A stretch of DNA of 64,000 nt from an uncultured Candidatus Saccharibacteria bacterium. GTDB taxonomy: Bacteria > Patescibacteriota > WWE3 > UBA101185 > UBA10185. The stretch is from contig CAZSDQ010000002.1 in the NCBI GenBank assembly GCA_964605725.1, positions 5,600 through 69,599 of the forward strand. The letters run 5' to 3'. The position numbers were made by a program, and so were the translations under genes. Below the pieces are notes generated by a model. It made no database searches. It saw nothing but the letters and a program-made list of their open reading frames with translations, and had not been told where the DNA came from. The stretch's first letter is position 1. Every line of letters starts with the position of its first letter. Below, one piece after another: positions 3,890-50,317 of this stretch.

Positions 3890-5872
3890 ATGCAAGGTAC
3901 TATCTATTTAAGCAAAATTAAAAAATTTGTTGGTCAGGAAGAAGAACCTACTGAATCTGATAATTTAAAAGAAGACGAACAAGAAGGAAATTCGTCAGAT
4001 TCAGGTGTGTATGAAGCTGAAGATCTATCCAAAGAAGATGAAAATAAAATGGTTTGGAAACCCGGGTTTCTTCAGCCTAAAGAGAAGTTGGAAGAAGAAG
4101 CAGATAAACTATCGGAATATAAAAACTACACAAAACCTCCTGTACAACCCAAACCCTCTTTTGTGGAGGAGGTGTCTGTTGAGGATAATAAAATTCAAGA
4201 AGATTTTAACAACATGCCTTCCAATTTTTCAGAACCTTTTAAAAAATACCTTATAGATTTCAAGAAAAGTGTTAAGGAGGAGGATAAAAAATCTTCAAAT
4301 CCTATATACGTTGACGAGATTGCTTCCAGGGTAGCGAAAGTCTACGAGACGGTGAGAAGAATAATTGATTGGAAAGAAGAACATCTCATCAGAAGGGCGG
4401 CAATTGAAAGAGTTCTTAAAAGAAGATTTGTTTCTAAGGTTTACGGTATAAGTATTATCCCTGATGTAAAACCTGCTGAAGCAGCAGAGCCTTTTATCTT
4501 GGAATTAATAAGAAGCGGATATTTCCCTAACGGTAAAATTGATAAAGAGAAGACTCCGGAGATTCAAAATTGCTTGGAAAAATATCTCTATATATTGAAT
4601 AACGCTGTAGTGATAAATGACGAGGAATCTAAAACAAAAAAAGAACAAAAAGCAGGAGTTAAGAAAAAAATTAATTTTTATAACTGGGTAATAGAAATTG
4701 CTGCTTGTGAGATAGAAGAGATATTGGACGCTCCTTTGAGAGAATATGCCTTGATGAATTTGATGACAGAATCTTTGATGCAAAGAATAAAAATAATTCC
4801 TGAAAATGAAATTTCCGAAGAAGATAAATATATACAAACTTATATATCTGTTCACAGGACTTTATATAATTTAGACAAACCGATTACAATTTTCCACCTG
4901 TTGAAATACAGATATCCAGAGTTTTTTACCTCATCAGAATATTTACCTGAATTTACTTCAAAAATATTTGATATTTGGAATGAGATTGAAGATTACTTGA
5001 ATTATAAAAAAGGTTCAGAATTTTTCAGAGTAGCTGAAAAATATGATGCTGCATACCTACTTATAGGTGATTCAATGAATTCCATGGAGAAGGAAGTGGA
5101 AATTATTGAGAAAAAGGTTTCTGATAAAGGAATTTTTATTCAAGCCGTTGAAAATAAATATAACGAAAGATTGGCTACTTTGAAAAAAAGATTATCTAAA
5201 CTTGCAATATTTTCTACGCTTTCAATCTTTGTTGCCGGTTTAGCTAGTTTACTGCTTTTTGAAATTCCAATTGCAAGCTGGGTTCGGGGTTATTTCAGCC
5301 CATGGTCAATAGTAGCTGATCTTGCTATACCTACCGCATTGATGTTTATCCTTGTCTGGATGATTAAGCCACCTTCAGGAAATAATTTAGAATCAGTAAA
5401 AGAAGAGGTTTCAAAAGTTGTTTACAAAGTAGATGAGTTAGATATTTACGAAGTTAAGCTTAAGAAAAAAATTAAGAAATTTCTCAATTTTATATTCGCA
5501 ATAATTTACCTAACAGGAGGCATGATATCTTTGTACGGTATATATTGGGTTTTTAAGATTGCAGATGTTCCATGGACTTCTCTGTACATAAACACCGGAA
5601 ATGTGGCTATGGTAGTTTTTTCTGCCATGGTAATAAGACAAAGATCAAGAGAGTTAACAATAGTTGAAAAGGAAAATATTATCGAATTTATTCTGGATTT
5701 CTTCTCAATACCTCTGGCAAAAATAGGTGGGTGGTTATCAGCTAAATGGAAAGAATACAACATCGTAAGTGTGTTTTTTATAGCTTTGGTTGATTTCCCC
5801 TTTTCAAGTTTTGTCGCAATGATAGAAAGCTGGAGAAATTTTATAAAAGAGAAAAGGTCAGAATTAAACTAA
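3890..5872 (+). CDS. hypothetical two-part protein: ~430-aa acidic soluble N-terminal region plus a C-terminal 5-6 TM domain
   Basis: Long ORF with consistent codon usage and hydrophobic helices in the C-terminal third. No motif I recognise. Confidence 0.5.
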   Translation: MQGTIYLSKIKKFVGQEEEPTESDNLKEDEQEGNSSDSGVYEAEDLSKEDENKMVWKPGFLQPKEKLEEEADKLSEYKNYTKPPVQPKPSFVEEVSVEDNKIQEDFNNMPSNFSEPFKKYLIDFKKSVKEEDKKSSNPIYVDEIASRVAKVYETVRRIIDWKEEHLIRRAAIERVLKRRFVSKVYGISIIPDVKPAEAAEPFILELIRSGYFPNGKIDKEKTPEIQNCLEKYLYILNNAVVINDEESKTKKEQKAGVKKKINFYNWVIEIAACEIEEILDAPLREYALMNLMTESLMQRIKIIPENEISEEDKYIQTYISVHRTLYNLDKPITIFHLLKYRYPEFFTSSEYLPEFTSKIFDIWNEIEDYLNYKKGSEFFRVAEKYDAAYLLIGDSMNSMEKEVEIIEKKVSDKGIFIQAVENKYNERLATLKKRLSKLAIFSTLSIFVAGLASLLLFEIPIASWVRGYFSPWSIVADLAIPTALMFILVWMIKPPSGNNLESVKEEVSKVVYKVDELDIYEVKLKKKIKKFLNFIFAIIYLTGGMISLYGIYWVFKIADVPWTSLYINTGNVAMVVFSAMVIRQRSRELTIVEKENIIEFILDFFSIPLAKIGGWLSAKWKEYNIVSVFFIALVDFPFSSFVAMIESWRNFIKEKRSELN

Positions 5873-5906
5873 CCCCTATCCTCAAAATTCATTTTAAATT
5901 AAGTTT

Positions 5907-6380
5907 TTAATTTAGTATGGCTATCGACAGATTAAGAACAGAGGCAAACGATACCCACAAAATATAAGGAATCAAGAGATATGAAGCTTTTCGATCTATT
6001 TTCCTAAATAGAATTATTGTATAGAGTATTGCAAACCAGAGTACGATAATCTCGATAAAAGCTAGGGGTGGGTTTTTTAACCCAAAAAATATTATTGACC
6101 ATAAAGTATTCAATAAAAGTTGCACAAAAAATACCTTGAGAGCTTTAGATCTTCCTTCGTTTTTTTCAGATAACCAAATGATAGAAACCGATATTCCCAT
6201 CATTACAAAAAGAGTCGTCCACACAGGAGCGAATACCCAGCTTGGTGGGTTTAAAGGAGATTTATTAATAGTTGTGTACCAGCCTTTTACCGCGGGCGCC
6301 GTGAATAAAGAACCAATAATTCCAGCCATTTGGCAGACTAATATGAACACAATGTATGTAATTGTTCTTTTATTTTTCAT
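5907..6380 (-). CDS. tspO: TspO/MBR family tryptophan-rich sensory protein
   Basis: 157 aa with 5 TM helices and Trp-rich motifs (PSWVFAPVWTTLFVMMG, LLLNTLWSIIFFG) typical of TspO_MBR. Confidence 0.75.
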   Translation of the reverse strand: MKNKRTITYIVFILVCQMAGIIGSLFTAPAVKGWYTTINKSPLNPPSWVFAPVWTTLFVMMGISVSIIWLSEKNEGRSKALKVFFVQLLLNTLWSIIFFGLKNPPLAFIEIIVLWFAILYTIILFRKIDRKASYLLIPYILWVSFASVLNLSIAILN

Positions 6381-10357: not shown

Positions 10358-12089
10358 AGATGATGTAGTGTCAGTAAAAATAGGAGGTCCGGCAGGAACA
10401 GGTGTTAAATCTGTAGGTTTGATGTTGGCAAAAATAGCAGCAAGGTCGGGTTACCAAATTTGTGATAACACAGAGTATCCGTCTTTAATTAGAGGTGGTC
10501 ACAATGTGATGCAAGTAAATTTTTCAGAAAGAGAAGTTACATCACCAAGAGTAAAGTCTGATCTTCTAATAGCTTTTGATCAGTTAACAATTGACCTGCA
10601 TTTTTCAGAAATCGAAAGCGGGGGAGGAATAATTTTTGATTCAAATTCAAAAATGGATGTTTCAAAAGTTTCAAAAGACGTTTCCCTTTACGGTATTCCT
10701 TTAAAAAAACTAGCATTTGAAGCCGGTGAAAAAAATATCTTTTTAAATATTGTGGCTTTGTCTTCCGCAATTTGTCTTTTAGGTGGAAATATTGAAACAT
10801 TTAAAAAATTAATCGAAGAAGAATACGGTGATAAAGGAGAAAAGATTATTGAGGCTGACAAAAAAGCCGCTGATTTAGGATACAACTTTGTTTTGGATAA
10901 TTTTAAAAATGACCTTCACGATTATATGACTGTGATTGATTCTTTTAGTTCCCCTGCTCCTTATATGGTTATAAGTGGGAATGAGGCGGCCGCTTTAGGT
11001 GCTATATCCGCAGGTATGCAGTTTGCCGCAATATACCCAATGTCTCCCATCAACAATATCCTCCATGTCTTGGCCGCCAATCAGCAGAAATTTGGTTACA
11101 TTTACAAACAACCAGAAGATGAGATATCGGCAATAAACATGTCCATCGGCGCGTCTTTTGCTGGAGTTCGTTCTATGACCGCAACTTCAGGAGGTGGATT
11201 TTGTTTGATGACAGAGGCTTATGGACTTGCGGGAATTACCGAAACACCTTTGGTAATAGTTGAGGGGATGAGAGGTGGCCCTGCCACCGGTCTTCCTACT
11301 TGGAGTGGGCAAGGTGACCTTCAAATGATTTTGCACTCTCATCAAGACGAATTTCCAAGATTAGTTTTAGCTCCTGGAGATGTTGAAGAAACTTACAATC
11401 TCACAGCAAAAGCTTTTGATTTGGCTGACAAATATCAAACTACCGTAGTTGTTTTGTTAGATAAAAATATTTGTGAAAACGACAGAACCGTTTTATTTCC
11501 GGATGTTTCAAATATAAAAATTGATAGAGGAAAGTTTACAAAAGAAAAAGTTGAAGATTTCAAAAGATATGAATTTTCAGAAGACGGTGTTTCTACAAGA
11601 AGTATTCCAGGAGTTGGAAATTATTTTCTTGCTAACTCTGATGAGCATGATGAATACGGTTATTCCACAGAAGAAATTGAACTTCGAAATAAAATGATGA
11701 AAAAAAGAATGCAGAAGCTTATTACATGCGCTCAAAACGACATGCTAGAACCAGAAGTTTTTGGTCCTGAGAATGCTGATATAACGGTACTTTCGTGGGG
11801 TAGTAATAAAGGAAGTATTATCGAAGCTGTTAAACGTTTTTCTAATGTAAATTATGTTCACGTTACATGGATGAATCCTTTTCCCGCAGAATTTTTAACA
11901 AAGGTTTTATCTAAGGCTAAGCATGTAGTTGATATTGAGTGTAATTATTCCGGCCAACTAGCAGATCTTGTAAGAGAAAAAACAGGAATTGATATAAAAG
12001 ATAGATATTTAAGATCAGACGGCAGGGTGATTTATCCGGAGGAAATAGTAGAGAAATTAAATTCAGTGGAAGGAGTTAAAAAAATATGA
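10347..12089 (+). CDS. 2-oxoacid (pyruvate/2-oxoglutarate):ferredoxin oxidoreductase, fused gamma-alpha subunit
   Basis: N-terminal gamma-domain motif GGPAGTGVKSVGLMLAKIAARSGY followed by alpha-subunit regions (GNEAAALGAISAG, YPMSPI, TETPLVIV). Overlaps the upstream gene by 11 nt. Confidence 0.8.
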   Translation: MVNKDDVVSVKIGGPAGTGVKSVGLMLAKIAARSGYQICDNTEYPSLIRGGHNVMQVNFSEREVTSPRVKSDLLIAFDQLTIDLHFSEIESGGGIIFDSNSKMDVSKVSKDVSLYGIPLKKLAFEAGEKNIFLNIVALSSAICLLGGNIETFKKLIEEEYGDKGEKIIEADKKAADLGYNFVLDNFKNDLHDYMTVIDSFSSPAPYMVISGNEAAALGAISAGMQFAAIYPMSPINNILHVLAANQQKFGYIYKQPEDEISAINMSIGASFAGVRSMTATSGGGFCLMTEAYGLAGITETPLVIVEGMRGGPATGLPTWSGQGDLQMILHSHQDEFPRLVLAPGDVEETYNLTAKAFDLADKYQTTVVVLLDKNICENDRTVLFPDVSNIKIDRGKFTKEKVEDFKRYEFSEDGVSTRSIPGVGNYFLANSDEHDEYGYSTEEIELRNKMMKKRMQKLITCAQNDMLEPEVFGPENADITVLSWGSNKGSIIEAVKRFSNVNYVHVTWMNPFPAEFLTKVLSKAKHVVDIECNYSGQLADLVREKTGIDIKDRYLRSDGRVIYPEEIVEKLNSVEGVKKI

Positions 12090-12940
12090 CACTAGAAGAA
12101 TTGAAAACTCCATATACTCCTAACTGGTGTCCTGGATGTGGAAATTTTAATATTTGGGCTGCTTTTAAAAATGCGGCAGTAAAAGAAGGTTGGGATAATA
12201 CTAATACAGCTTTAGTTGCAGGAATAGGTTGCCACGGACATATTTTAAATTTTGTAAAACTTACATCTTTTGAAGGTTTGCATGGTAGGGCAATTCCTGT
12301 GGCTTCCGGTCTAAAAATGGCAAACCACAGACTTAATGTTTTTGCTCATGTTGGCGATGGTGACTGTTTAGGTGAAGGTGGTAATCATTTTGTTCATGCG
12401 GCCCGAAGAAATCATAATATTACAGTACTTTTGCACGATAATGCTCTATATGCTTTGACTGCCGGACAGACCTCTCCTGCTACTGGAAAAGGTGTGAAAA
12501 CTAAATCTACTCCTGCAGGAAACCCCGATGAGCCGATTTATCCTATGGCTTTGGCAATTGCCTCTGGGGCTACGTTTGTTGCTCGGGCTTATTCTGGTGA
12601 CATGCCAAAACTTACAGAGCTAATTATTGAGGCTAATAAACACAGGGGTTTTGCGTTTATAGACATTCTTCAGCCGTGTGTCACTTTTAATAAAATATGT
12701 ACACATGCAATGTTTCTACAAAATACTTATTATCTTGGAAAAGACTATGATCCGACAAATAAAAAAGAAGCTTTTGAGAAAGCTCACGAGTTTGGGGAAA
12801 AGAAAATTCCCGTTGGTATTTTTTACAGAGAAGAAAAACCAACCGTAGAGGATGGTTACCCACAAATTTCAGAAATTCCGCTGGTTAATCAAAAACCAAA
12901 ATTAAACAGCCTTACTGATTTATTCAAAAAATATACTTGA
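12086..12940 (+). CDS. 2-oxoacid:ferredoxin oxidoreductase beta subunit (TPP-binding)
   Basis: N-terminal WCPGCG motif and TPP-binding GDGDCLGEGGNHF. Start is translationally coupled to the alpha-subunit gene. Confidence 0.8.
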   Translation: MTLEELKTPYTPNWCPGCGNFNIWAAFKNAAVKEGWDNTNTALVAGIGCHGHILNFVKLTSFEGLHGRAIPVASGLKMANHRLNVFAHVGDGDCLGEGGNHFVHAARRNHNITVLLHDNALYALTAGQTSPATGKGVKTKSTPAGNPDEPIYPMALAIASGATFVARAYSGDMPKLTELIIEANKHRGFAFIDILQPCVTFNKICTHAMFLQNTYYLGKDYDPTNKKEAFEKAHEFGEKKIPVGIFYREEKPTVEDGYPQISEIPLVNQKPKLNSLTDLFKKYT

Positions 12941-19252: not shown

Positions 19253-19327
19253 TGGCTCCCCCGCGTGGACTCGAACCACGAACCTGCCGGTTAACAGCCG
19301 GACGCTCTACCATTGAGCTACAGGGGA
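19253..19327 (-). tRNA. tRNA-Asn (anticodon GUU)
   Basis: Reverse complement reads TCCCCTGTAGCTCAATGGTAGAGCGTCCGGCTGTTAACCGGCAGGTTCGTGGTTCGAGTCCACGCGGGGGAGCCA. This folds as a cloverleaf with a GTT anticodon, a U1 start as in E. coli tRNA-Asn, and an encoded CCA. Confidence 0.85.
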
Positions 19328-20394: not shown

Positions 20395-20748
20395 ATGCAA
20401 TATCAAATAACATCAGATAATATCGAACTGTCTCCAAGCATGGAGGCTTTAACGAAAGAGAAGTTTGAAAGGATAGAAAGCAGGGTGAAACATTTACCCG
20501 AGGGTTCGTGTTTTGCAAGAGTAGTTTTAAATTCAGTACCCGAGGAACAATTTGAAGCTAAAGTTAATTTAGATCTTAGCGGCAAAGAATATTTTTCTGA
20601 TGAAACCGCTTTTACACTTGAAAATGCTTTAGTTGAGGTGGTAGAAGAATTGCTTGAGATGATTGAAAAAGATAGTATAGTCCAGCGCAGAAAGGATTTG
20701 AAAAAAGAAGTTGATTTGGAAGAGTTTTTGACAGACCAGGCACAGTAG
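20395..20748 (+). CDS. hpf: ribosome hibernation promoting factor / RaiA (YfiA) family, short form
   Basis: 117 aa. Motifs ITSDNIELSPSMEALTKEKFERI...AKVNLDLSG match the ribosomal subunit interface protein family. Confidence 0.7.
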   Translation: MQYQITSDNIELSPSMEALTKEKFERIESRVKHLPEGSCFARVVLNSVPEEQFEAKVNLDLSGKEYFSDETAFTLENALVEVVEELLEMIEKDSIVQRRKDLKKEVDLEEFLTDQAQ

Positions 20749-20776
20749 TATAATACGATTTTTAGGTAATAAGCTT

Positions 20777-21302
20777 AGCGAAGTTGACCAAGAAAGGGGA
20801 GATTTAAGTACTTTAAAAAATTTACTTTGAAATAGGCACGGGTGATTAGCTCCTGTTGGAGTGAAACGACAACCGTTACCAACGTATAGTTGAAAATTAA
20901 CTTAAAAATAAACGAGCTTTAGCGATTGAGTAAGTGTGAGAAGAAATTGGATTTTAGTTGGTGCGTTGGTAAGATTGGCAGAGCAAGCGTCTTTAGTAAG
21001 CGAACGTTAGTGAAGCTGACCAAGACGGGAGTTGAAGTTTGTTAACAACATTTACTTAGGGATTATTTAGGGTGATTAGCTCCTGTTGGAGTGAAACGAC
21101 AACCGGAGATAATCTAGATAAAGAAACTTAAATTAGATGATTTGAGCGTAAGCGAAAGAGATAAAAGAAGATAGGTAAGGTTAAAACATGGGTGATTAGC
21201 TCAATTGGCAGAGCAAGCGTCTTTAGTCAACAAGCGGTAGCGAAGTTGACCAAGAGAGGTGAGGTTTAAGTGCGTTAAAAAGATTTACTTAGAAATCGTT
21301 AT
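20777..21302 (+). repeat. array of degenerate, nested 5'-fragments of the downstream tRNA, interleaved with a conserved ~60-nt purine-rich flank motif
   Basis: GGGTGATTAGCTC (tRNA positions 1-13) occurs at 20840, 21070 and 21190. Two copies extend to anticodon-loop position 33 (ATTGGCAGAGCAAGCGTCTT at 20974-20994 and 21203-21223) and then diverge. The motif AGCGAAGTTGACCAAGA.AGG..AG.TTTAAGT...TTAAAAA.ATTTACTT occurs at 20777, ~21009 and 21239. Confidence 0.6.
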
Positions 21303-21378
21303 GGGTGATTAGCTCAATTGGCAGAGCAAGCGTCTTATACACGCTCGGTTCCAGGTTCGAGTCCTGGATCACCCACCA
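21303..21378 (+). tRNA. tRNA-Ile (anticodon UAU, reading AUA)
   Basis: GGGTGATTAGCTCAATTGGCAGAGCAAGCGTCTTATACACGCTCGGTTCCAGGTTCGAGTCCTGGATCACCCACCA. Perfect cloverleaf with anticodon loop CTTATAC (U33, A37) and encoded CCA. Confidence 0.8.
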
Positions 21379-21523
21379 GAAAAGTGGGTATCATCCGCAG
21401 GATGGTAACTAACTCTATAGTGATACAGGACGAGAATGTCGGAGCGAACAAAGTGAGCGAGACGGGGTCGAGAGCCAAGAAGCTCTAGGAACGAAGTGAC
21501 GTAGAGATACTTGGACTAGTGAC

Positions 21524-21570
21524 CGAGTCCTGGATCACCCACCAGAAAAGTGGGTATCATCCGCAGGATG
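21524..21570 (+). repeat. direct repeat of the tRNA-Ile 3' end plus 27 nt of downstream flank (att-like duplication of 21358-21408)
   Basis: gagtcctggatcacccaccagaaaagtgggtatcatccgcaggatgg occurs twice, 115 bp apart. Confidence 0.6.
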
Positions 21571-21580
21571 GATACCACAA

Positions 21581-21994
21581 CTAAGATTTTAAATATTTCC
21601 TCAAAGCCTTATCCAATGTTTTTATCTTTACATTATAGATATTGGAGTATGTGACTATAAAACAATCAATGATACTTAACTTGGGTTTTCGTCCGTAGAT
21701 ATAAAGGATTTCTTTAAGACTATTCTTATCAGTGAATACGTTATCGTAAGAAATTATTGTAAAAACATAATCGACAATCGTTTCTCTAGATTGTTTATAA
21801 AATTTCTCTAGAACAAAAACTGTTTCAAAAAATATTGGCAGTGGGATATGGACCTCGTCGGTATTGGCGATTATTTTTGTAAGTTCCGGGTTTTCATCAA
21901 TTAGAGCTCTTATCAAAATGTTGGTATCTATAACAACTCCCTTAGACAACCGAACCTTATCATCTAACTTCTCATTAATTGTTTTTCTTTTCAT
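21581..21994 (-). CDS. vapC: PIN-domain toxin (VapC-like)
   Basis: Motif VVIDTNILIRAL and a later acidic IIDCFIV. The ORF overlaps the upstream small antitoxin ORF. Confidence 0.7.
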   Translation of the reverse strand: MKRKTINEKLDDKVRLSKGVVIDTNILIRALIDENPELTKIIANTDEVHIPLPIFFETVFVLEKFYKQSRETIVDYVFTIISYDNVFTDKNSLKEILYIYGRKPKLSIIDCFIVTYSNIYNVKIKTLDKALRKYLKS

Positions 21995-22223
21995 TTACGA
22001 TATGTCTTTCCGTCCAAGTACTTTCTATCTTTTGTTTACTTAATTTGACATTAGAGTCCTTTAGTAGTCCCCTGAAATCGTCTATGGATTTAAGTTTAGA
22101 TACTTTGATTGTTTCACCGGATTCATAAAAAACCAACCTGTCACTTGGTTTAAGTTTTAATTTATCTCTTACCTTTATTGGTACTGTTATTTGATTTTGT
22201 TTAGTTAATGTTGCGTACTCCAT
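21975..22223 (-). CDS. AbrB/MazE (SpoVT-AbrB) family antitoxin
   Basis: 82 aa. MEYATLTKQNQITVPIKVRDKLKLKPSDRLVF matches the swapped-hairpin AbrB/MazE fold. Overlaps the vapC start by 20 nt. Confidence 0.55.
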   Translation of the reverse strand: MEYATLTKQNQITVPIKVRDKLKLKPSDRLVFYESGETIKVSKLKSIDDFRGLLKDSNVKLSKQKIESTWTERHIVNEKKNN

Positions 22224-22313
22224 ATTAATGATAAAGTATCATATACATTAAAAATGTAAATAATTAATGAAAGAACTTCAGATAAGTTAGTTATGTTATT
22301 ATATTAGCAGGGG

Positions 22314-22661
22314 GTGAAATTAATGTTAAAAAATATAATAAAATTCATAGTAAATGGTTTTGCGGTTTATGCTACTGCATATCTTCTTTCAGGAGTAACC
22401 GTTTCTTCATTCAAAGTTGCTTTAATTGTTGCCTTAGTTTTAGCAGCCTTAAATATTTTAGTAAAACCAATTCTTTTGATTCTCTCCCTTCCAGTAACTA
22501 TTATAACTTTAGGTCTATTCACCTTTGTGATAGATGCTTTAATGGTGATTATTGTCTCAAAAATTGTTCTGGGATTTAGTGTAGACAGTTTCTTAACAGC
22601 AATTGTGTTTTCAATAGTATTGACAATACTGTCATACATTTTGCACAAACTGATTGATTGA
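22314..22661 (+). CDS. DUF360 / phage holin family 4 (Phage_holin_4_2) membrane protein
   Basis: 115 aa with 4 TM helices. Pattern LLSGVTVSSFKVALIVALVLAALNILVKPILLILSLPVTIITLGLFTFVIDALMV matches PF04020-type proteins. Confidence 0.55.
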   Translation: MKLMLKNIIKFIVNGFAVYATAYLLSGVTVSSFKVALIVALVLAALNILVKPILLILSLPVTIITLGLFTFVIDALMVIIVSKIVLGFSVDSFLTAIVFSIVLTILSYILHKLID

Positions 22662-22714
22662 AGTTAGCCTAAAAATTAACCTTTTTAAAAAAGTATTTCG
22701 TTACAAAGTCTATT

Positions 22715-23590
22715 TTAGAGTGTTGTCAACTCTGTCTTATCCATTTTTTCCGGTTTTTTGATGTATTCTAGGTATTTTTCAGTAGTAGATTCTCTTTTAT
22801 GTCCTGCAACCTTCGCTAAATAAGAGATATTCACACCGTTTTCAAGATGAAAAGCTACAAATGTATGTCTCAAGTCATTTACTTTTGCCTTTTCAATACC
22901 TGCAATTCTAAAAAACCTGTCTATAGTCGATCTGATATTTCTAATTAGCAATCCCTTTCCTGTCTTTGTAATAAAAAGATTCGCTGAAGCCCCTGATACA
23001 TTGGCTCTATCTTTTTCTATATATTTCTTCACTGCTTCTGACGCAGGTTTATTAACCGGAATATTTCTCGATTCTTTGTTGTTTCTTTTAGGAATAAACA
23101 AAGAAGCTGTTTCATCCTTTATTTCAAAATCTTTCATTTCAATCCCGGCTAGTTCTGAAATAGTAATTCCTGTTTGAAGTAGAAGTTCAATCATAGCGTA
23201 GCTTCTGACATCATTTTTTGCAGAGTCTCTCAAAGCTCTGTACTCCATTTTTGAAAGTATTCTTGGAGCACCTGTTTCAAATTTTGGATGTTTCAATTGG
23301 GGTGAAATATCTTCTTTAAGATAACCTTCTTTTGCTAAATATTTAATGAAAGTTCTGGCTGCATTAGTTTTTCTGGAAATTGATTTTGGTGTGTAATTTT
23401 TCTCACCTAAATCCTTCATAAATGCAACAATTGGTTCAATTGAAATTTTTTCAACCTCATCAATTTTTTTAGACGACAAAAAAGATAGAAGTTGCTCAAT
23501 GTCCTTGTTATAGGCAACAACCGTAGCTCCCGACTTTCCCTCGGACTTTAATTCTTCGATAAACTTTTTTTGTGCAATATCTAGTTTCAT
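22715..23590 (-). CDS. tyrosine recombinase XerC/XerD-like with non-canonical active-site residues
   Basis: Box I ELLLQTGITISELAGI aligns with XerD VLYATGLRVSELVGL, so catalytic Arg-I is replaced by Thr. Box II VNDLRHTF aligns with SPHVLRHAF, so His-II is replaced by Asn. GHKRESTTEKYLEYI retains the His and the Tyr nucleophile. Confidence 0.75.
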   Translation of the reverse strand: MKLDIAQKKFIEELKSEGKSGATVVAYNKDIEQLLSFLSSKKIDEVEKISIEPIVAFMKDLGEKNYTPKSISRKTNAARTFIKYLAKEGYLKEDISPQLKHPKFETGAPRILSKMEYRALRDSAKNDVRSYAMIELLLQTGITISELAGIEMKDFEIKDETASLFIPKRNNKESRNIPVNKPASEAVKKYIEKDRANVSGASANLFITKTGKGLLIRNIRSTIDRFFRIAGIEKAKVNDLRHTFVAFHLENGVNISYLAKVAGHKRESTTEKYLEYIKKPEKMDKTELTTL

Positions 23591-23720
23591 AATATTATTT
23601 TTTTGAGCAGATGTATTTTCTAAGGGGGCTTTTAGACAAAAGAAAATATTAAGTAAATTCTATGGGCTTATCTTACCAAAACCGTTGAAAACTGTCAATT
23701 AATTAACTATTATAGGTTTA

Positions 23721-24122
23721 ATGTCCTCAATAAGCAGATTAAAATATATTTTAGGTATCGTATTTTTTACAGTGTTATCGGTAAACACCATCAAATCAGC
23801 ACTAAATGTTTTAAAAAGTAAGGATAGGTTGGATCAGGTTAAAAATGAAGTAGCCGTGTTGGAAGAAGACAAGAAGAAGATAGAAGAGGAGATAGAGTTT
23901 AAAAAAACAGATGAATATATTGAAGAAAAGGCAAGGAACGATTTAAATCTTATTAAGCCGGGGGAGAAGGTCTATGTTGTGAAAACCACTGAAAAGGACA
24001 CCGCAGGAAATGTTTTATCTGAAACAGACACTGCTGCTTCAGAAAAAGGTTTGGATAAAGGTAATGAGGAAAAAAAGAATGAAAATTGGTATTCCTGGTA
24101 CAGACTTTTCTTTGATAATTAA
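23721..24122 (+). CDS. septum formation initiator (FtsB/DivIC family)
   Basis: N-terminal TM helix, a coiled-coil (VKNEVAVLEEDKKKIEEEIEF) and the motif ARNDLNLIKPGEKVYVV. Confidence 0.55.
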   Translation: MSSISRLKYILGIVFFTVLSVNTIKSALNVLKSKDRLDQVKNEVAVLEEDKKKIEEEIEFKKTDEYIEEKARNDLNLIKPGEKVYVVKTTEKDTAGNVLSETDTAASEKGLDKGNEEKKNENWYSWYRLFFDN

Positions 24123-45308: not shown

Positions 45309-47057
45309 TTGCTTAATGTTTTGTTGAGCAATATAATTACCTTAATGGCTTCAGCTTACATGCCCCAATCCAATAGACAACATCCGGTTCCTCAGAATAT
45401 TATGGATGTTGAGTTTAAACTTATAGGTGAGTTGACGATGCGTCAGTTTTCTTATCTATTAGTATTTGGTTTAGCTTCTTACCTAAGTCTGAAAGGAATA
45501 CCGGGCCTATTTAGAGTACCCACAGCCTTGTTTTTTGGTTTACTTGCTTTGGGTTTAGCTTTTGTTCCTGTTGGGGAAAGGGGTTTGGACGAGTGGATAG
45601 TAAATTTTTTTAAATCAATTAATTCTCCTACTCAAAGAAAATGGTTGAAAGAGCCTCAATTACCCACGGCGTTTTTGTATGATAACTTGGCTATTGTTCA
45701 GCACGAGATGATTACACTTGCTCCTACTTCCAGTCGTAGAAAACTTGAAGAGTATTTAAAATTTAAATCTTATGAGAGTGACGAGGATCCCCTCGATATT
45801 CCTGAAAAATCCTATGTTATGAAACTAAAACAAATTTATCAGGATACTTACAGCCCCGAACTAACTGGCGGTGTTGGAGTACTTGTGGATGAGCCCGAAG
45901 TATCGGTAGGTCCAGAAATCCCAAATATCCCGGGTGTTCCTGTTATTCCGGAGGATGCAGAACCCAAATATAATTTAGAAAATGAAGAACCTAATAAAGA
46001 AACAGATAAGTTAACTTCGGAATATAAAGCATTTTCTAGTACTGAAGATTTTGGTAAGGAAGTTTTAAAAGAAGCTAAGGTAAGCGAAGAGTTTAAAACC
46101 GAGCAAACACCGCCGGTTCCCCCGATTTTACAAAAATCAAAATTTGTTGATACCGGTGTTAACAGACAAAGGATGAGAAGGGGGAGTGTTTCCGCAAAAA
46201 CTAGTATGCGAAATATTTCTCAACCACCAAGCGAATTGGATATGTATTCATACAGTTCAGTTACACCTGATATGCATTCAGGAAGAAAGTTTACTAATTT
46301 GGTACCTTCAGAAGGTGAGATAGTGTTGCCAATCAGGGGTGAGAGAGTGTTGAGTACTTCCGTAGAGCAGTCAATCGATAGCGATATTCAGGAAAAAGCC
46401 AGAAAACTCGAGGAACTTTTACAAAAAATTAGTCAGGAGGAGGGCGTGGTAATTAAAAAACCCCCTGTCCAAAAACCTGTTGCAACTCCAGTAGATAGGA
46501 TAGCGGAGGAAATGGCAGAGAAACTTAAAAAACAAAATGAAGAGCTAAACATTGAAATTAAGAGATTAAAAGATCAAATACAGAAAGGGAAATCTTCTTC
46601 AGTAGAAACCAGTGAGCAGGAAAATCTTCTTCAAAAACTTGAATCTCAAAAAGGCGATATATCATCCAGTTATTCCGAATTAAGAAAGCAAGTTCAGGAT
46701 TTACAAATGAAGTTGGATGAAAAAGTTAAAGTTTCTACGGGCGAGGAGTTTTTAAATAAGGTAAAAAAACAACTTCCTGTTTTGACTGACACACCTAATG
46801 TTCTGACAGGTGTGGTAAGGGATGCAGAAGGAAAAAATTTAGGTGACACACTTCTGATAGTAAAGAACAGCAGAGGAGATACTATTAGAGCATTGAAAAC
46901 AAATTCTTTGGGTCAATTTGTTGTATCTACACCTCTTCAGAACGGAACCTATACTGTAGAAGTAAGTCCGGTTAACAAAACTAATTTAACATTTGCTATA
47001 ATTCCTATTGAAGTAAAAGGAGAAGTAATACCTACATTAGATGTGATAGGAAAATAA
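45309..47057 (+). CDS. PrgI/VirB3-like membrane protein with a long coiled-coil extension and a C-terminal carboxypeptidase-regulatory-like beta domain
   Basis: N-terminus LTMRQFSYLLVFGLASYL...ALFFGLLALGLAFVPVGERGLDEWIVNFF...QRKW resembles PrgI-family T4SS components. A coiled-coil follows, then the C-terminal GVVRDAEGKNLGDTLLIV...GTYTVEVS segment. Likely real starts are internal Mets at ~45360 or 45402. Confidence 0.45.
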   Translation: MLNVLLSNIITLMASAYMPQSNRQHPVPQNIMDVEFKLIGELTMRQFSYLLVFGLASYLSLKGIPGLFRVPTALFFGLLALGLAFVPVGERGLDEWIVNFFKSINSPTQRKWLKEPQLPTAFLYDNLAIVQHEMITLAPTSSRRKLEEYLKFKSYESDEDPLDIPEKSYVMKLKQIYQDTYSPELTGGVGVLVDEPEVSVGPEIPNIPGVPVIPEDAEPKYNLENEEPNKETDKLTSEYKAFSSTEDFGKEVLKEAKVSEEFKTEQTPPVPPILQKSKFVDTGVNRQRMRRGSVSAKTSMRNISQPPSELDMYSYSSVTPDMHSGRKFTNLVPSEGEIVLPIRGERVLSTSVEQSIDSDIQEKARKLEELLQKISQEEGVVIKKPPVQKPVATPVDRIAEEMAEKLKKQNEELNIEIKRLKDQIQKGKSSSVETSEQENLLQKLESQKGDISSSYSELRKQVQDLQMKLDEKVKVSTGEEFLNKVKKQLPVLTDTPNVLTGVVRDAEGKNLGDTLLIVKNSRGDTIRALKTNSLGQFVVSTPLQNGTYTVEVSPVNKTNLTFAIIPIEVKGEVIPTLDVIGK

Positions 47058-47059
47058 AT

Positions 47060-47767
47060 ATGTCTGCCCAAGAGATTATATCTACAACTCAAGATCATTT
47101 AGACATCTTTGATATTAAGGATAATTTCGCTGTATTAAAAAACGGAACAGTTTGTGCAGTCATACAAACTACTGCAGTAAATTTTGACCTGCTTTCAGAA
47201 ATTGAACAGGACGCGATAATTGCGGCTTTTTCAATGCTATTAAATTCCATTACATTTCCATTACAAGTAGTCATCAGATCAAGAAAATTGGATATATCAA
47301 AATACGTAGAAAAAGTTAGAAAAGTAGAATCCAAAATAATAGACCCCCTCCTAAAACATCAGGCTGAGTCATACAGAAAATTTGTTCAAGATGTAATTAA
47401 GGTTAATGAAGTTTTAGATAAGAAATTTTATGTTGTAGTTTCGACAACTAACGTAGTTGTAACTCAAAAAGGAGGCGGTGCTTTTGATTGGATGTTAAAG
47501 CTATCTGGGATGCAAAATAAAAGAGTTGGTGTTGTTAATGTTGAAAAAATATTGCAGGACGGACGTACCCAACTTAGCCCTAGAATTGACCATGTAATTA
47601 GAGAATTTGGAAGAATAGGAATTAAATGCAAACAACTAACCACACAAGAATTAGTGGAACTTTATTTTGATATCTATAACCCAAGTAATATTCACGGTCA
47701 GAGAATAAGAACCAATTTAGATGATTATAAGACTGCCATTGTAAACCCGGCAATCATAGAGGAATAG
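47060..47767 (+). CDS. VirB4 N-terminal-domain-like protein (no ATPase domain)
   Basis: IFDIKDNFAVLKNGTVCAVIQTTAVNFDLLSEIEQDAIIAAFSMLLNSITFPLQVVIRS parallels the N-domain of Gram-positive VirB4 homologs and of the downstream ORF. Translationally coupled to its neighbours. Confidence 0.4.
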   Translation: MSAQEIISTTQDHLDIFDIKDNFAVLKNGTVCAVIQTTAVNFDLLSEIEQDAIIAAFSMLLNSITFPLQVVIRSRKLDISKYVEKVRKVESKIIDPLLKHQAESYRKFVQDVIKVNEVLDKKFYVVVSTTNVVVTQKGGGAFDWMLKLSGMQNKRVGVVNVEKILQDGRTQLSPRIDHVIREFGRIGIKCKQLTTQELVELYFDIYNPSNIHGQRIRTNLDDYKTAIVNPAIIEE

Positions 47768-47770
47768 AAT

Positions 47771-50317
47771 ATGGCGTTAAATATTTTTGATTTATTTAAA
47801 AAAAGTACAAAAAAAACTGTAAGTAACACGGGCGACACGGCTGAGGTGGAGAAAACTCCACCTGAAATATTGGCTGAAGGAATGATGAATGTTAGAGATA
47901 TAATCGCTCCTTCGGCTATTGAAGTTGACTTCAACGATATAAGAATCGGCGATATGTATTACAGAACTTTTTTTGTTTCCGGATACCCGAGATTTGTCGG
48001 TGCAAACTGGCTCTCTCCGGTTATAAATTTTGATCACACTCTTTTGATTTCAATGTTTTATTATCCGGTAAAATCAAAAGTAATTTTAGATGATTTAAGA
48101 AAAAAAATAACTGAATTGGAAGCAACAACAATGACTAACAGGGAGAAGGGAAAAATTTCTGACCCTGTGGTAGAGGCGGCGCTTGAGGATGCAACTGCCT
48201 TACAAGAACAGTTAGTCAAGGGAGTTGAAAAGTATTTTCAATTTTCTTTTTACATTACTATTCCGGCATACGAGAAAGAAGAGTTAGATAATGTTAGTTC
48301 TAAGCTCGAATCTCTTCTTGCATCTTTATTGTTGATATCAAAAACTTCTGCCTTGCAAATGGAGGATGCATTTAGATCTTGTATACCTACTGGGATAGAC
48401 AGATTGATGGTTACAAGAAATATGGATACGACAAGTTTAGCAACTACGTTTCCTTTTACGTCATCTGATTTAACTATGGAAGAAGGGATAATGTATGGAA
48501 TAAATAAACATAATGGATCACTAGTAATATTTGACCGTTTCTCGATGGAAAACGCTAATTCAGTTGTATTTGCTAAATCCGGTGCTGGAAAATCTTACTT
48601 CGTGAAATTGGAGGCTTTAAGACACTTAGTATTTGGTGCGCACGTGATGATAATTGATCCGGAAGAAGAGTACTATAATCTTTGCGAAGTTGTTGGCGGA
48701 AATTATATTGGTTTTTCGGCTAATTCTAAACATAAAATAAACCCATTTGATCTTTCCGGAATTGCTACTGAAGGGGAGAACGAATTGGGTCAGAAACTTA
48801 TTTCCTTGGTAACTTTACTAAAATTAATGATGGGTCAGCTAAATTCAACCGAGGAGGCGATTCTCGACCGAGCTTTAATTGAGACTTACAGAATGAAGGG
48901 TATCACCACAGATCCTGATACACAAAGTAGTAAAGAACCACCTGTAATGGAGGATTTATACAAGGTTTTATTGGGTGGTAGTGAGCCTGAATCTAAAACT
49001 ATGGCTGATAGATTAGAGAAATTCATTAAAGGTTCAATGGCAGGGATTTTTGATTCGCAGTCAAATATAAATCTGGAAAGTAGTATGACGGTGTTTTCAA
49101 CTAAGAACCTTGAGGATGCATTAAGACCAATTGCTTTTTATATGATATTGGATTTCGTCTGGACTACTATTAGGAGGGATTTAAGGAAAAGAATATTGAT
49201 AGTAGAGGAGGCTTGGTATTTAATGCAAAATCCCGATAGTGCAAGATTTATATACGGTATAGCTAAAAGAGCCAGAAAATATTATTTAGGTTTGACTACT
49301 ATATCTCAGGATGTAGATGACTTTTTGACATCCGAATATGGGAAAGCTGTAGTTACAAACTCATCTATTCAGATGTTATTTAAACAGCATCCCGCAGCCA
49401 TAGATAAAGTTGTTGAAACATTCTATCTTTCTGAAGGAGAGAAAAGATTTTTACTATCAGCGGGTGTTGGGGAGGGTCTGTTTTTCGCTGGATCCAATCA
49501 CGTAGCTATAAAGGTTATGGCTTCGGAATCAGAACATAAGCTTATAACTACAAATCCCGAGGAAGTTTTAAAATTAAAAGAAGAAAGACGACTTGAAGAG
49601 AAAAAAGGACAGTTGGATTTGGCAAGGAAAGAGGAACTTAGAATGGAGTATAAACCTTATAAAGCTCCTGAACCGATGGACAAGTACACAACATTTGATG
49701 AATTAGGGGAAACTAAACAGGAATTTAAATCTATCAAAAATTATGAGAATGAAAATATAAATTCTGAAGTTAATAAAACGGTACCAATTGAAACTAAACC
49801 TGTACTGGAGCCAAAAAGTGATTTAACAATAAAATCCAAAATTGTTGACAAAGTTGTTCCGGAGCCTCAGAAAACTGTTCAGAAACCTATGAACGAGACT
49901 AATCTTCAAAAAGATCAGAAGCCTATTGTTATAGATTTGAATAAAAAAAATCAGACTTTTGATGCTGGAATAACTAACAATCCCGCACCTACTTTTAAAT
50001 CTGCACCTGCTCCTGAAAATGTCTCTGTTTCTAAGCCTACTCCAGCGCCCACACTTACACCTTCACCTGTTCCTACACCTACGCAGGTTATTAATCAAAA
50101 TAATCAACAGTCTCAACCATCTGCACAAAAACCTAAAAATATCCTCGACAATAAAGTCATTGAGTTAAGGAAAAGGATGTTACAGGACGAGGATAGTTTC
50201 TTAGATAACGCTCCATCTGCAAATGAGATTATGGACTCTGTAGAGGAGATGAAAAGAAACAAACCAATGATTAATAACCAGCCGCCGATTCAGAATAACC
50301 CAACAATCCAACAATAA
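47771..50317 (+). CDS. VirB4/TraE/CagE-like type IV secretion/conjugation ATPase with a Pro/Thr/Gln-rich C-terminal tail
   Basis: VirB4 N-domain pattern (IAPSAIEVDFNDIRIGDMYYRTFFVSGYPRFVGANWLSPV), Walker A VVFAKSGAGKSYF and Walker B ILIVEEAWYLM (DEAW-type). The last ~200 aa are low-complexity (APAPTFKSAPAPENV...PTPAPTLTPSPVPTPTQ). Confidence 0.7.
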   Translation: MALNIFDLFKKSTKKTVSNTGDTAEVEKTPPEILAEGMMNVRDIIAPSAIEVDFNDIRIGDMYYRTFFVSGYPRFVGANWLSPVINFDHTLLISMFYYPVKSKVILDDLRKKITELEATTMTNREKGKISDPVVEAALEDATALQEQLVKGVEKYFQFSFYITIPAYEKEELDNVSSKLESLLASLLLISKTSALQMEDAFRSCIPTGIDRLMVTRNMDTTSLATTFPFTSSDLTMEEGIMYGINKHNGSLVIFDRFSMENANSVVFAKSGAGKSYFVKLEALRHLVFGAHVMIIDPEEEYYNLCEVVGGNYIGFSANSKHKINPFDLSGIATEGENELGQKLISLVTLLKLMMGQLNSTEEAILDRALIETYRMKGITTDPDTQSSKEPPVMEDLYKVLLGGSEPESKTMADRLEKFIKGSMAGIFDSQSNINLESSMTVFSTKNLEDALRPIAFYMILDFVWTTIRRDLRKRILIVEEAWYLMQNPDSARFIYGIAKRARKYYLGLTTISQDVDDFLTSEYGKAVVTNSSIQMLFKQHPAAIDKVVETFYLSEGEKRFLLSAGVGEGLFFAGSNHVAIKVMASESEHKLITTNPEEVLKLKEERRLEEKKGQLDLARKEELRMEYKPYKAPEPMDKYTTFDELGETKQEFKSIKNYENENINSEVNKTVPIETKPVLEPKSDLTIKSKIVDKVVPEPQKTVQKPMNETNLQKDQKPIVIDLNKKNQTFDAGITNNPAPTFKSAPAPENVSVSKPTPAPTLTPSPVPTPTQVINQNNQQSQPSAQKPKNILDNKVIELRKRMLQDEDSFLDNAPSANEIMDSVEEMKRNKPMINNQPPIQNNPTIQQ

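Follow-up and report, generated by a model that had tools for sequence, protein, structure and literature searches.

A Xer-like tyrosine recombinase with Thr at Arg-I and Asn at His-II, kept between ftsB and tRNA-Ile in WWE3 bacteria

The window analysed here is a 64-kb stretch of low-GC DNA (34%) whose closest proteins are labelled Patescibacteria or candidate division WWE3, marking its source as a member of the WWE3 class of the candidate phyla radiation (CPR), and whose housekeeping genes include dnaG, rpoD, PFOR, alaS, groEL, dnaN and ftsH. Our subject is a gene for a Xer-like tyrosine recombinase (xer, below), which stands with three small genes between a tRNA-Ile gene and ftsB, and which an earlier note had described as the disabled integrase of a decayed integrative islet. 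The genes named there (PIN toxin, AbrB/MazE antitoxin, DUF360/holin-family protein and recombinase) are present as described, in both coordinates and Pfam domains, and the locus reads as follows.

20395-20748, + strand: hpf/raiA (S30AE domain match), the conserved far flank of the locus
21303-21378, + strand: tRNA-Ile(UAU), convergent with xer, a neighbour kept in WWE3 and Microgenomates
21358-21405, + strand: 48-nt direct repeat, copy 1 (21 nt of tRNA end, from T-loop to CCA, and the 27 nt that follow)
21524-21571, + strand: 48-nt direct repeat, copy 2, ending 9 nt from the PIN stop codon
21581-21994, - strand: PIN-domain toxin, VapC-like (Pfam PIN, 39.5 bits; acidic residues D23, E57, D110 and D128 by inspection)
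21975-22223, - strand: AbrB/MazE-type antitoxin, VapB-like (Pfam MazE_antitoxin, 28.7 bits; TIGR01439), overlapping the PIN start by 20 nt
22314-22661, + strand: DUF360/Phage_holin_4_2 membrane protein with four transmembrane segments (Pfam, 99.5 bits)
22715-23590, - strand: Xer-like tyrosine recombinase, 291 amino acids; Thr143 (Arg-I), Lys168/Arg169 (hairpin), Asn238 (His-II), Arg241, His264, Tyr273
23591-23720, no strand: xer/ftsB divergent intergenic region, with a conserved promoter-like pair for xer on the - strand and no dif-like palindrome
23698-23693 and 23675-23670, - strand: the conserved promoter-like pair for xer, TTGACA and TAAGAT, separated by N17
23721-24122, + strand: ftsB/DivIC septum-formation gene, divergent partner of xer (domain match and synteny)

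Beyond ftsB lie two tRNA-Met genes and ftsH. The recombinase has the fold of the tyrosine-recombinase superfamily, an N-terminal SAM-like core-binding domain followed by a catalytic domain (PF00589), with Pfam scores of 86.8 bits for Phage_integrase and 49.1 bits for Phage_int_SAM_1. The PIN gene, with its four acidic residues, is preceded by the overlapping gene for an AbrB/MazE-fold antitoxin, as in VapBC pairs. The locus was compared with 87 related loci (80 from a scan of one genome per species and 7 from metagenomes; the tRNA count is over 88), which are designated L0xx, with homologous proteins or cluster representatives designated P0xxx. These loci include two complete WWE3 genomes, CP006914.1 (RAAC2_WWE3_1) and MEWB01000001.1; three loci that recur below are a relative 97% identical (L008), a relative 92% identical (L004) and a Microgenomates-type metagenome-assembled genome (MAG; L066). 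Many TPA 'binchicken'/SRP MAGs with the CPR-specific xer locus are labelled 'uncultured Gammaproteobacteria' or 'Candidatus Saccharibacteria', labels that clash with their gene content and look like placeholder taxonomy.

Active-site positions were assigned by phmmer alignment to XerD (1a0p), XerA (5hxy/4a8e) and XerH. The motif TGITISE aligns with TGLRVSE, placing Thr143 at Arg-I; NDLRHTF aligns with HVLRHAF, placing Asn238 at His-II; and Arg241, His264 and Tyr273 fall at the positions of Arg-II, His-III and the nucleophile. Among the best 120 of thousands of homologues (57-100% identity, nearly all of 291 amino acids, from WWE3/Patescibacteria), Thr143 is found in 119, Asn238, Arg241 and His264 in all 120, and Tyr273 in 119. 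Because the two substitutions are fixed to this degree (Thr in 119 of 120, Asn in 120 of 120) they are not alignment artefacts, and the earlier note's account of both changes, and of the retention of Arg-II, His-III and Tyr, is borne out. Arg169, with Lys168 and Lys172 close by, occupies the alignment column of the XerD hairpin lysine, a column that holds Lys in 58 and Arg in 59 of the 120 sequences; in an AlphaFold model built on 52 family members (pLDDT 92.5), residues 167-174, which hold Lys168, Arg169 and Lys172, form the beta2-beta3 turn. The best PDB matches of this model in Foldseek are XerA, lambda Int, XerH and XerD (probability 1.00). The protein scores below the equivalog cut-offs of both Xer families (XerC, TIGR02224, and XerD, TIGR02225), with 156.4 versus 329.6 bits for one and 149.4 versus 335.15 bits for the other, and its match to the streptococcal XerD-like family NF002685 is weak (31 bits, cut-off 178).

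Asn at His-II is present in 87 of 87 loci and in most representatives of 50%-identity clusters down to about 33% identity, a distribution indicating that it is ancestral to the whole of this large CPR clade. The Arg-I position holds Arg in 52 of the 87 loci (Daviesbacteria, Gottesmanbacteria, Woesebacteria, Curtissbacteria and others, of Microgenomates type) and, in the 35 loci of the WWE3 clade, Thr (28), Ser (6) or Met (1), both complete genomes included; we read Thr or Ser at Arg-I as a WWE3 trait that arose within WWE3. Within the Asn-type clade Lys or Arg at 168/169 occurs in 149 of 151 sequences with Thr or Ser at Arg-I versus 11 of 79 with Arg, the Arg-I sequences usually carrying Pro-Phe, Pro-Glu or Ala-Gln there. 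In a neighbour-joining tree, which carries no support values, one Arg-type sequence with a basic hairpin (L054) lies beside the WWE3 clade and two Arg-type sequences (L031 and L037) lie inside it, and P0121, the closest Arg-type representative, also has Lys-Arg at 168/169; the pattern fits, and is suggestive of, an order of events in which the hairpin base was gained first and Arg-I lost later. Lys236 was considered as a compensating residue and rejected: it looks WWE3-specific in comparison with all Arg-type sequences, but the nearest Arg-I-retaining outgroups carry it too.

Two further observations concern this wider family. The sister clade that retains Arg-I (Daviesbacteria, Curtissbacteria and others; L038-L087, P0122-P0137) seems to lack the hairpin lysine, with hairpins such as IRAYESHPER, and has Asn at His-II, yet keeps Tyr, Arg-II, His-III and the ftsB synteny. 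Several proteins of 620-693 amino acids (P0168, P0173, P0175, P0184, P0187, P0197, P0200, P0205, P0216, P0218, P0220, P0222, P0238 and P0245) consist of two complete tyrosine-recombinase units in tandem, and in many of them His-II is replaced in one unit by Cys, Tyr, Phe or Leu. The label of one such protein is Candidatus Tectomicrobia.

The surroundings of xer are those of a resident gene. Immediately upstream and divergent from it stands ftsB at 83 of 87 loci (WWE3 and Microgenomates), and downstream and convergent stands tRNA-Ile(UAU) at 62 of 88, with gaps down to 5-60 nt (57 nt in the complete genome RAAC2_WWE3_1); the order ftsB/xer/tRNA-Ile spans WWE3 and the Microgenomates (Daviesbacteria, Gottesmanbacteria, Woesebacteria, Levybacteria, Woykebacteria and Curtissbacteria). 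The ratio of nonsynonymous to synonymous substitution rates (dN/dS) for xer is 0.047 against L008 and 0.041 against L004, indicating strong purifying selection. The comparison with the flanks that the earlier note proposed gives no foreign signature: the four genes have a GC content of 0.30-0.33 and a GC content at third codon positions of 0.23-0.31, within the gene-to-gene spread of the window background (0.342+/-0.026 and 0.280+/-0.032). Among 2.9 million viral contigs there are no relatives of xer above 28% identity. The marks of a tRNA-island integrase are likewise absent, in that the gene lies outside the tRNA-end repeats, is present in all related loci with no patchy distribution, and has neither odd composition nor close relatives in viral contigs. 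On these sequence grounds (fixed synteny, low dN/dS, normal composition and no close viral relatives) the recombinase gene belongs to the vertically inherited core of the lineage and does not encode a mobile islet's integrase.

Two of its neighbours deserve a remark of their own. The tRNA-Ile for AUA has a genomic UAU anticodon, not the usual lysidine-modified CAU type, in the window and in 62 related loci (WWE3 and Microgenomates). The gene hpf/raiA is a near neighbour of xer in WWE3, and chain 14 of PDB entry 9i5v (401 amino acids), named 'ribosome-associated translation inhibitor RaiA', is a canonical Xer-like recombinase over its first approximately 280 residues; the tie between the two may be a coincidence, an annotation fusion or a functional link.

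What this core gene does is a matter of graded likelihood. We lean, with moderate confidence, towards a resident, vertically inherited Xer-type recombinase that works with a rearranged catalytic pocket and has a Xer-like job. Such an enzyme would cleave and rejoin DNA through Tyr273 with the help of Arg241 and His264; the argument for retained chemistry is that Tyr, Arg-II and His-III are invariant under strong purifying selection. The positive charge normally provided by Arg-I would be supplied from the beta2-beta3 hairpin by Lys168/Arg169, much as a downstream arginine does in the integrase of CTnDOT (IntDOT). The residues concerned in IntDOT are Ser259 and Arg285, 26 positions apart (+26), which is also the step from Thr143 to Arg169. 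The job itself may be chromosome dimer resolution, coupled to division, at a dif-type site elsewhere in the genome; a division-coupled role fits the linkage to ftsB.

The earlier note had reasoned from two missing catalytic residues to a loss of activity, a step that holds in part. Alignment restores neither Arg nor His at the two positions. Nevertheless, comparable losses occur in recombinases that are active: in Cre all but five substitutions of His-II leave activity, so that this residue is 'not strictly required', and the same change as here, H289N, is recombination-proficient, with moderate activity in vivo and in vitro (PMC2943603); and according to the passages of PMC8138268 that cite Kim 2010, the CTnDOT integrase and some of its relatives naturally lack Arg-I, with an arginine further downstream substituting for it.

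Several observations weigh against a working enzyme of this kind. At Arg-I, Cre tolerates only His, and Lys in vivo, and neither Thr nor Ser; its nucleophile and hairpin lysine are the only strictly required residues, and the O5' leaving group is contacted by Arg-I and the hairpin lysine (PMC2943603). The association of the basic hairpin with Thr/Ser goes back largely to a single event in the phylogeny, and the basic pair is missing from two Thr lineages of independent origin (P0129 and P0169). The sister clade that keeps Arg seems to be without the very hairpin lysine that Cre strictly requires, which leaves the catalytic status of the whole clade uncertain. No dif-like palindrome was found in either intergenic region flanking xer, and no GC-skew switch in the window, where the skew is positive throughout; the replication terminus therefore lies elsewhere. 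Finally, L066 has a canonical XerD-like gene (5010-5930; TIGR02225, 278 bits) beside ftsH and approximately 4 kb from its Asn-type xer.

The recombination site and the second recombinase can be narrowed somewhat further. A dif site beside the gene was considered and rejected: on the ftsB side there is nothing but divergent promoter-like hexamers, which are conserved, and conservation is absent 3' of xer. Over the window as a whole a dif-like pattern has 11 matches versus 10.8 expected, which is chance frequency. The window holds one tyrosine recombinase only, and among the 87 loci extra recombinases are confined to the L066 gene and a fragment in L076; approximately 1.3 Mb was sampled across these loci, and one extra recombinase per genome at a random position would give about that count. 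The L066 gene has two close relatives only, its next-nearest matches being XerD proteins of Chloroflexi; it was probably acquired horizontally, as judged from these matches, and because of them we do not regard it as a general partner within the clade.

The strongest alternative has the protein binding DNA sequence-specifically or serving an architectural purpose without catalysis, either as an SMC unloader like XerD or as a structural partner that activates a second, canonical recombinase, its Tyr, Arg and His being kept for DNA binding or assembly. We consider this possible but rather unlikely. In its favour, two residues of the catalytic pentad are missing here, the sister clade has no His-II either and, it seems, no hairpin lysine, the change of Arg-I to Thr or Ser is inactive in Cre (PMC2943603), and a sequence-specific SMC-unloading role at the terminus has been described for XerD (in PMC12322038, in the lines that cite Karaboja 2021). 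The canonical gene 4 kb away in L066 could be the partner required, and the linkage to ftsB fits a division or segregation role of this type as well. XerD reportedly has no need of recombination to unload SMC. On the other side, more than 200 diverged sequences show essentially no variation at Tyr, Arg-II and His-III; pseudoenzymes are usually without such invariance of their catalytic residues. A partner of the L066 type is, moreover, not general, for the reason given above. The repurposed non-catalytic protein to which the earlier note had alluded is thus a possible outcome, less likely than an active variant given the invariance of these three residues.

A bolder form of the active-enzyme reading, which we hold to be improbable at present, joins two propositions: that this is a class-wide Xer-like family with an 'either/or' basic residue (Arg-I and no hairpin Lys in Microgenomates; hairpin Lys/Arg and no Arg-I in WWE3; Asn at His-II in both), and that the WWE3 enzyme possibly uses the 3' end of tRNA-Ile as its own site. 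If true, the first would amount to a rewired catalytic pocket in a tyrosine recombinase, and the second would explain both the perfectly kept tRNA-end copies and the variable genes that come without an integrase. 

Tyrosine recombinases and type IB topoisomerases share an RKHRH-Y pocket that is generally taken to be near-invariant. In Cre no residues tolerate change less than Arg-I and the hairpin lysine; WWE3, a whole class that keeps the nucleophile under strong selection, has lost the former, and its sister group apparently the latter instead. Nature thus offers a test of whether particular contacts to the scissile phosphate and the leaving group can be dispensed with or exchanged. The protein also bears on chromosome dimer resolution in CPR bacteria, which have genomes of approximately 1 Mb and unusual division machinery, and for which we know of no defined dif/Xer system. 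In practical terms, genes of this kind in CPR genomes should be neither annotated as 'inactive integrases' nor taken as markers of islands.

The spacer between xer and tRNA-Ile is where the mobile-islet idea retains a basis: it is a variable spot with repeats of the tRNA end, and that part of the earlier note survives. Across genomes the spacer ranges from 5 nt to 3.3 kb and contains DUF360, VapBC, rubredoxin, SMI1_KNR4 and unannotated open reading frames (ORFs) in differing combinations; no recombinase gene lies in the spacer of any locus examined. PIN homologues are few (24); several apparently share a contig with a Xer homologue (of 97, 95, 86, 85, 79, 68 and 63% identity), as judged from matching lengths of the longest contigs, two cases were verified directly at the same locus position, and PIN identity tracks Xer identity. 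An insertion of VapBC so recent as to be limited to relatives of at least 95% identity was rejected, since genomes whose Xer is 79% or 63% identical have the pair at this locus too. VapBC is missing from L004, L002, L006 and L010, and because of this we conclude that it has been lost repeatedly; its dN/dS is 0.09-0.12. DUF360 adjoins xer in a WWE3 subclade with at least about 65% Xer identity, and no phage or lysis genes are found near it, its neighbours being xer, VapBC, the tRNA and hpf, which is not the lysis or prophage context of a holin. VapBC and DUF360 are, as far as their sequences indicate, old residents of a variable spacer under purifying selection.

Three side observations belong to this region. 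The DUF360 gene (22314-22661) differs from its counterpart in L008 (9416-9763) by a dS of 0.04, with flanking genes at 0.34-0.80, which suggests a recent exchange of this segment between the lineages of the window and L008. The PIN sequence has no significant match in the PDB. In L004 a large serine recombinase (10377-12002; Resolvase and Recombinase domains, 541 amino acids) stands directly beside tRNA-Asn; the window, whose own tRNA-Asn occupies 19253-19327, has no counterpart of this gene. The L004 recombinase may mark an element integrated at tRNA-Asn.

The perfect 48-nt direct repeats enclose only 118 bp, and no third copy of the tRNA-end repeat was found at the xer side, in agreement with the earlier note, which had found no matching attR there. 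In 10 of 22 WWE3 loci, versus 1 of 28 Microgenomates loci, the final 21 nt of tRNA-Ile recur 40-200 nt beyond the gene, and these downstream copies are 95-100% identical to each genome's own tRNA (for example, in L001, L002, L004, L008, L011, L029 and L033); the copy is conserved or continually renewed, not a recent scar. In L008 an ORF of 559 amino acids with no Pfam match (10497-12467) is inserted exactly after the CCA of the downstream copy, and beyond the ORF the 27-nt extension occurs again in diverged form. The window is without this insertion. Upstream of tRNA-Ile, at 20750-21300, are about 2.5 tandem units of 230 bp, each with perfect copies of 5' pieces of the tRNA (for example, 21188-21223 equals 21301-21336), and such units are kept in relatives (L004 8460-8900, L008 12690-13130, L002 and L006). 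Over 21079-21255 the identity to L006 is 92%, versus approximately 70% in coding DNA, and Rfam finds only the tRNA in 20700-21620, at gathering thresholds and also at E<=1.

These repeats raise the alternative that the resident recombinase uses the adjacent 3' end of tRNA-Ile as its own attachment site, capturing or releasing integrase-less cassettes in the spacer in a chromosomal, IMEX-like or integron-like manner, which we judge quite unlikely. The variable length and small gene sets of the spacer, with no recombinase inside, are what such a process would leave, as are a copy of the last 21 nt that matches the genome's own tRNA and begins in the T-loop (10 of 22 WWE3 loci), where the tRNA copies of tyrosine integrases likewise start, and the L008 ORF placed exactly after the CCA. 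Against this, elements equipped with integrases of their own generally target tRNA genes; the variable genes are not within the segment bounded by the repeats, and there is no third repeat; VapBC has a long history of vertical inheritance at this position; the linkage of xer that is conserved most strongly is the one to ftsB; and the spacers of Microgenomates vary without repeats.

The last alternative is the earlier note's relic, an integrase left over from a decayed integrated element and on its way to becoming a pseudogene. It has the adjoining tRNA 3' end with its repeats and the two missing pentad residues to recommend it, and is refuted by a dN/dS of 0.04-0.05, substitutions fixed across a class-level clade, ftsB synteny at 83 of 87 loci, near-invariant Arg-II, His-III and Tyr, an old VapBC pair, normal composition and the absence of close relatives from viral contigs. 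Elsewhere in the window, at 45309-50317, a PrgI-family protein followed by a TraG/VirB4-like P-loop ATPase forms a type IV secretion or competence-like module amid housekeeping genes.

Among known systems, the recombinase that we take to be active and Xer-like most resembles XerC/XerD, XerA, XerH and XerS: it is a two-domain simple recombinase of approximately 290 amino acids with a SAM-like core-binding domain and a catalytic domain, its best sequence and fold matches are XerD (1a0p), XerA (5hxy/4a8e) and XerH (5jjv), and its gene is conserved, chromosomal and linked to one for cell division, the 87 loci showing no close paralogue. Unlike XerC/XerD, it falls far below the equivalog cut-offs and has Thr at Arg-I and Asn at His-II; unlike XerS and XerH, it has no dif site next to its gene here. 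Smyshlyaev et al. (2021, PMC8138268) describe a 'Cand' subgroup of Xer-related simple tyrosine recombinases, confined to candidate phyla and suggested to be stand-ins for Xer, with which the taxonomy and architecture of our protein agree; compared by description only, it probably belongs to this subgroup. The main text of that paper reports no Asn/Thr active-site changes, ftsB/tRNA-Ile synteny or hairpin pattern, and its supplementary tables contain no WWE3 entries.

IntDOT shares with our protein the natural absence of Arg-I in what is there an active tyrosine recombinase; it differs in being the arm-binding integrase of a Bacteroidetes conjugative transposon, of another sequence subgroup and another biology, and the equivalence of the compensating residues is a presumed one. 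The Cre mutants H289N/H289A include the same change of His-II to Asn (H289N), but as an engineered single mutation in an otherwise canonical site. The streptococcal XerD-like protein (NF002685) and XerD in SMC unloading are Xer-family proteins kept for non-catalytic roles; in contrast to both, the nucleophile and two other catalytic residues are invariant here.

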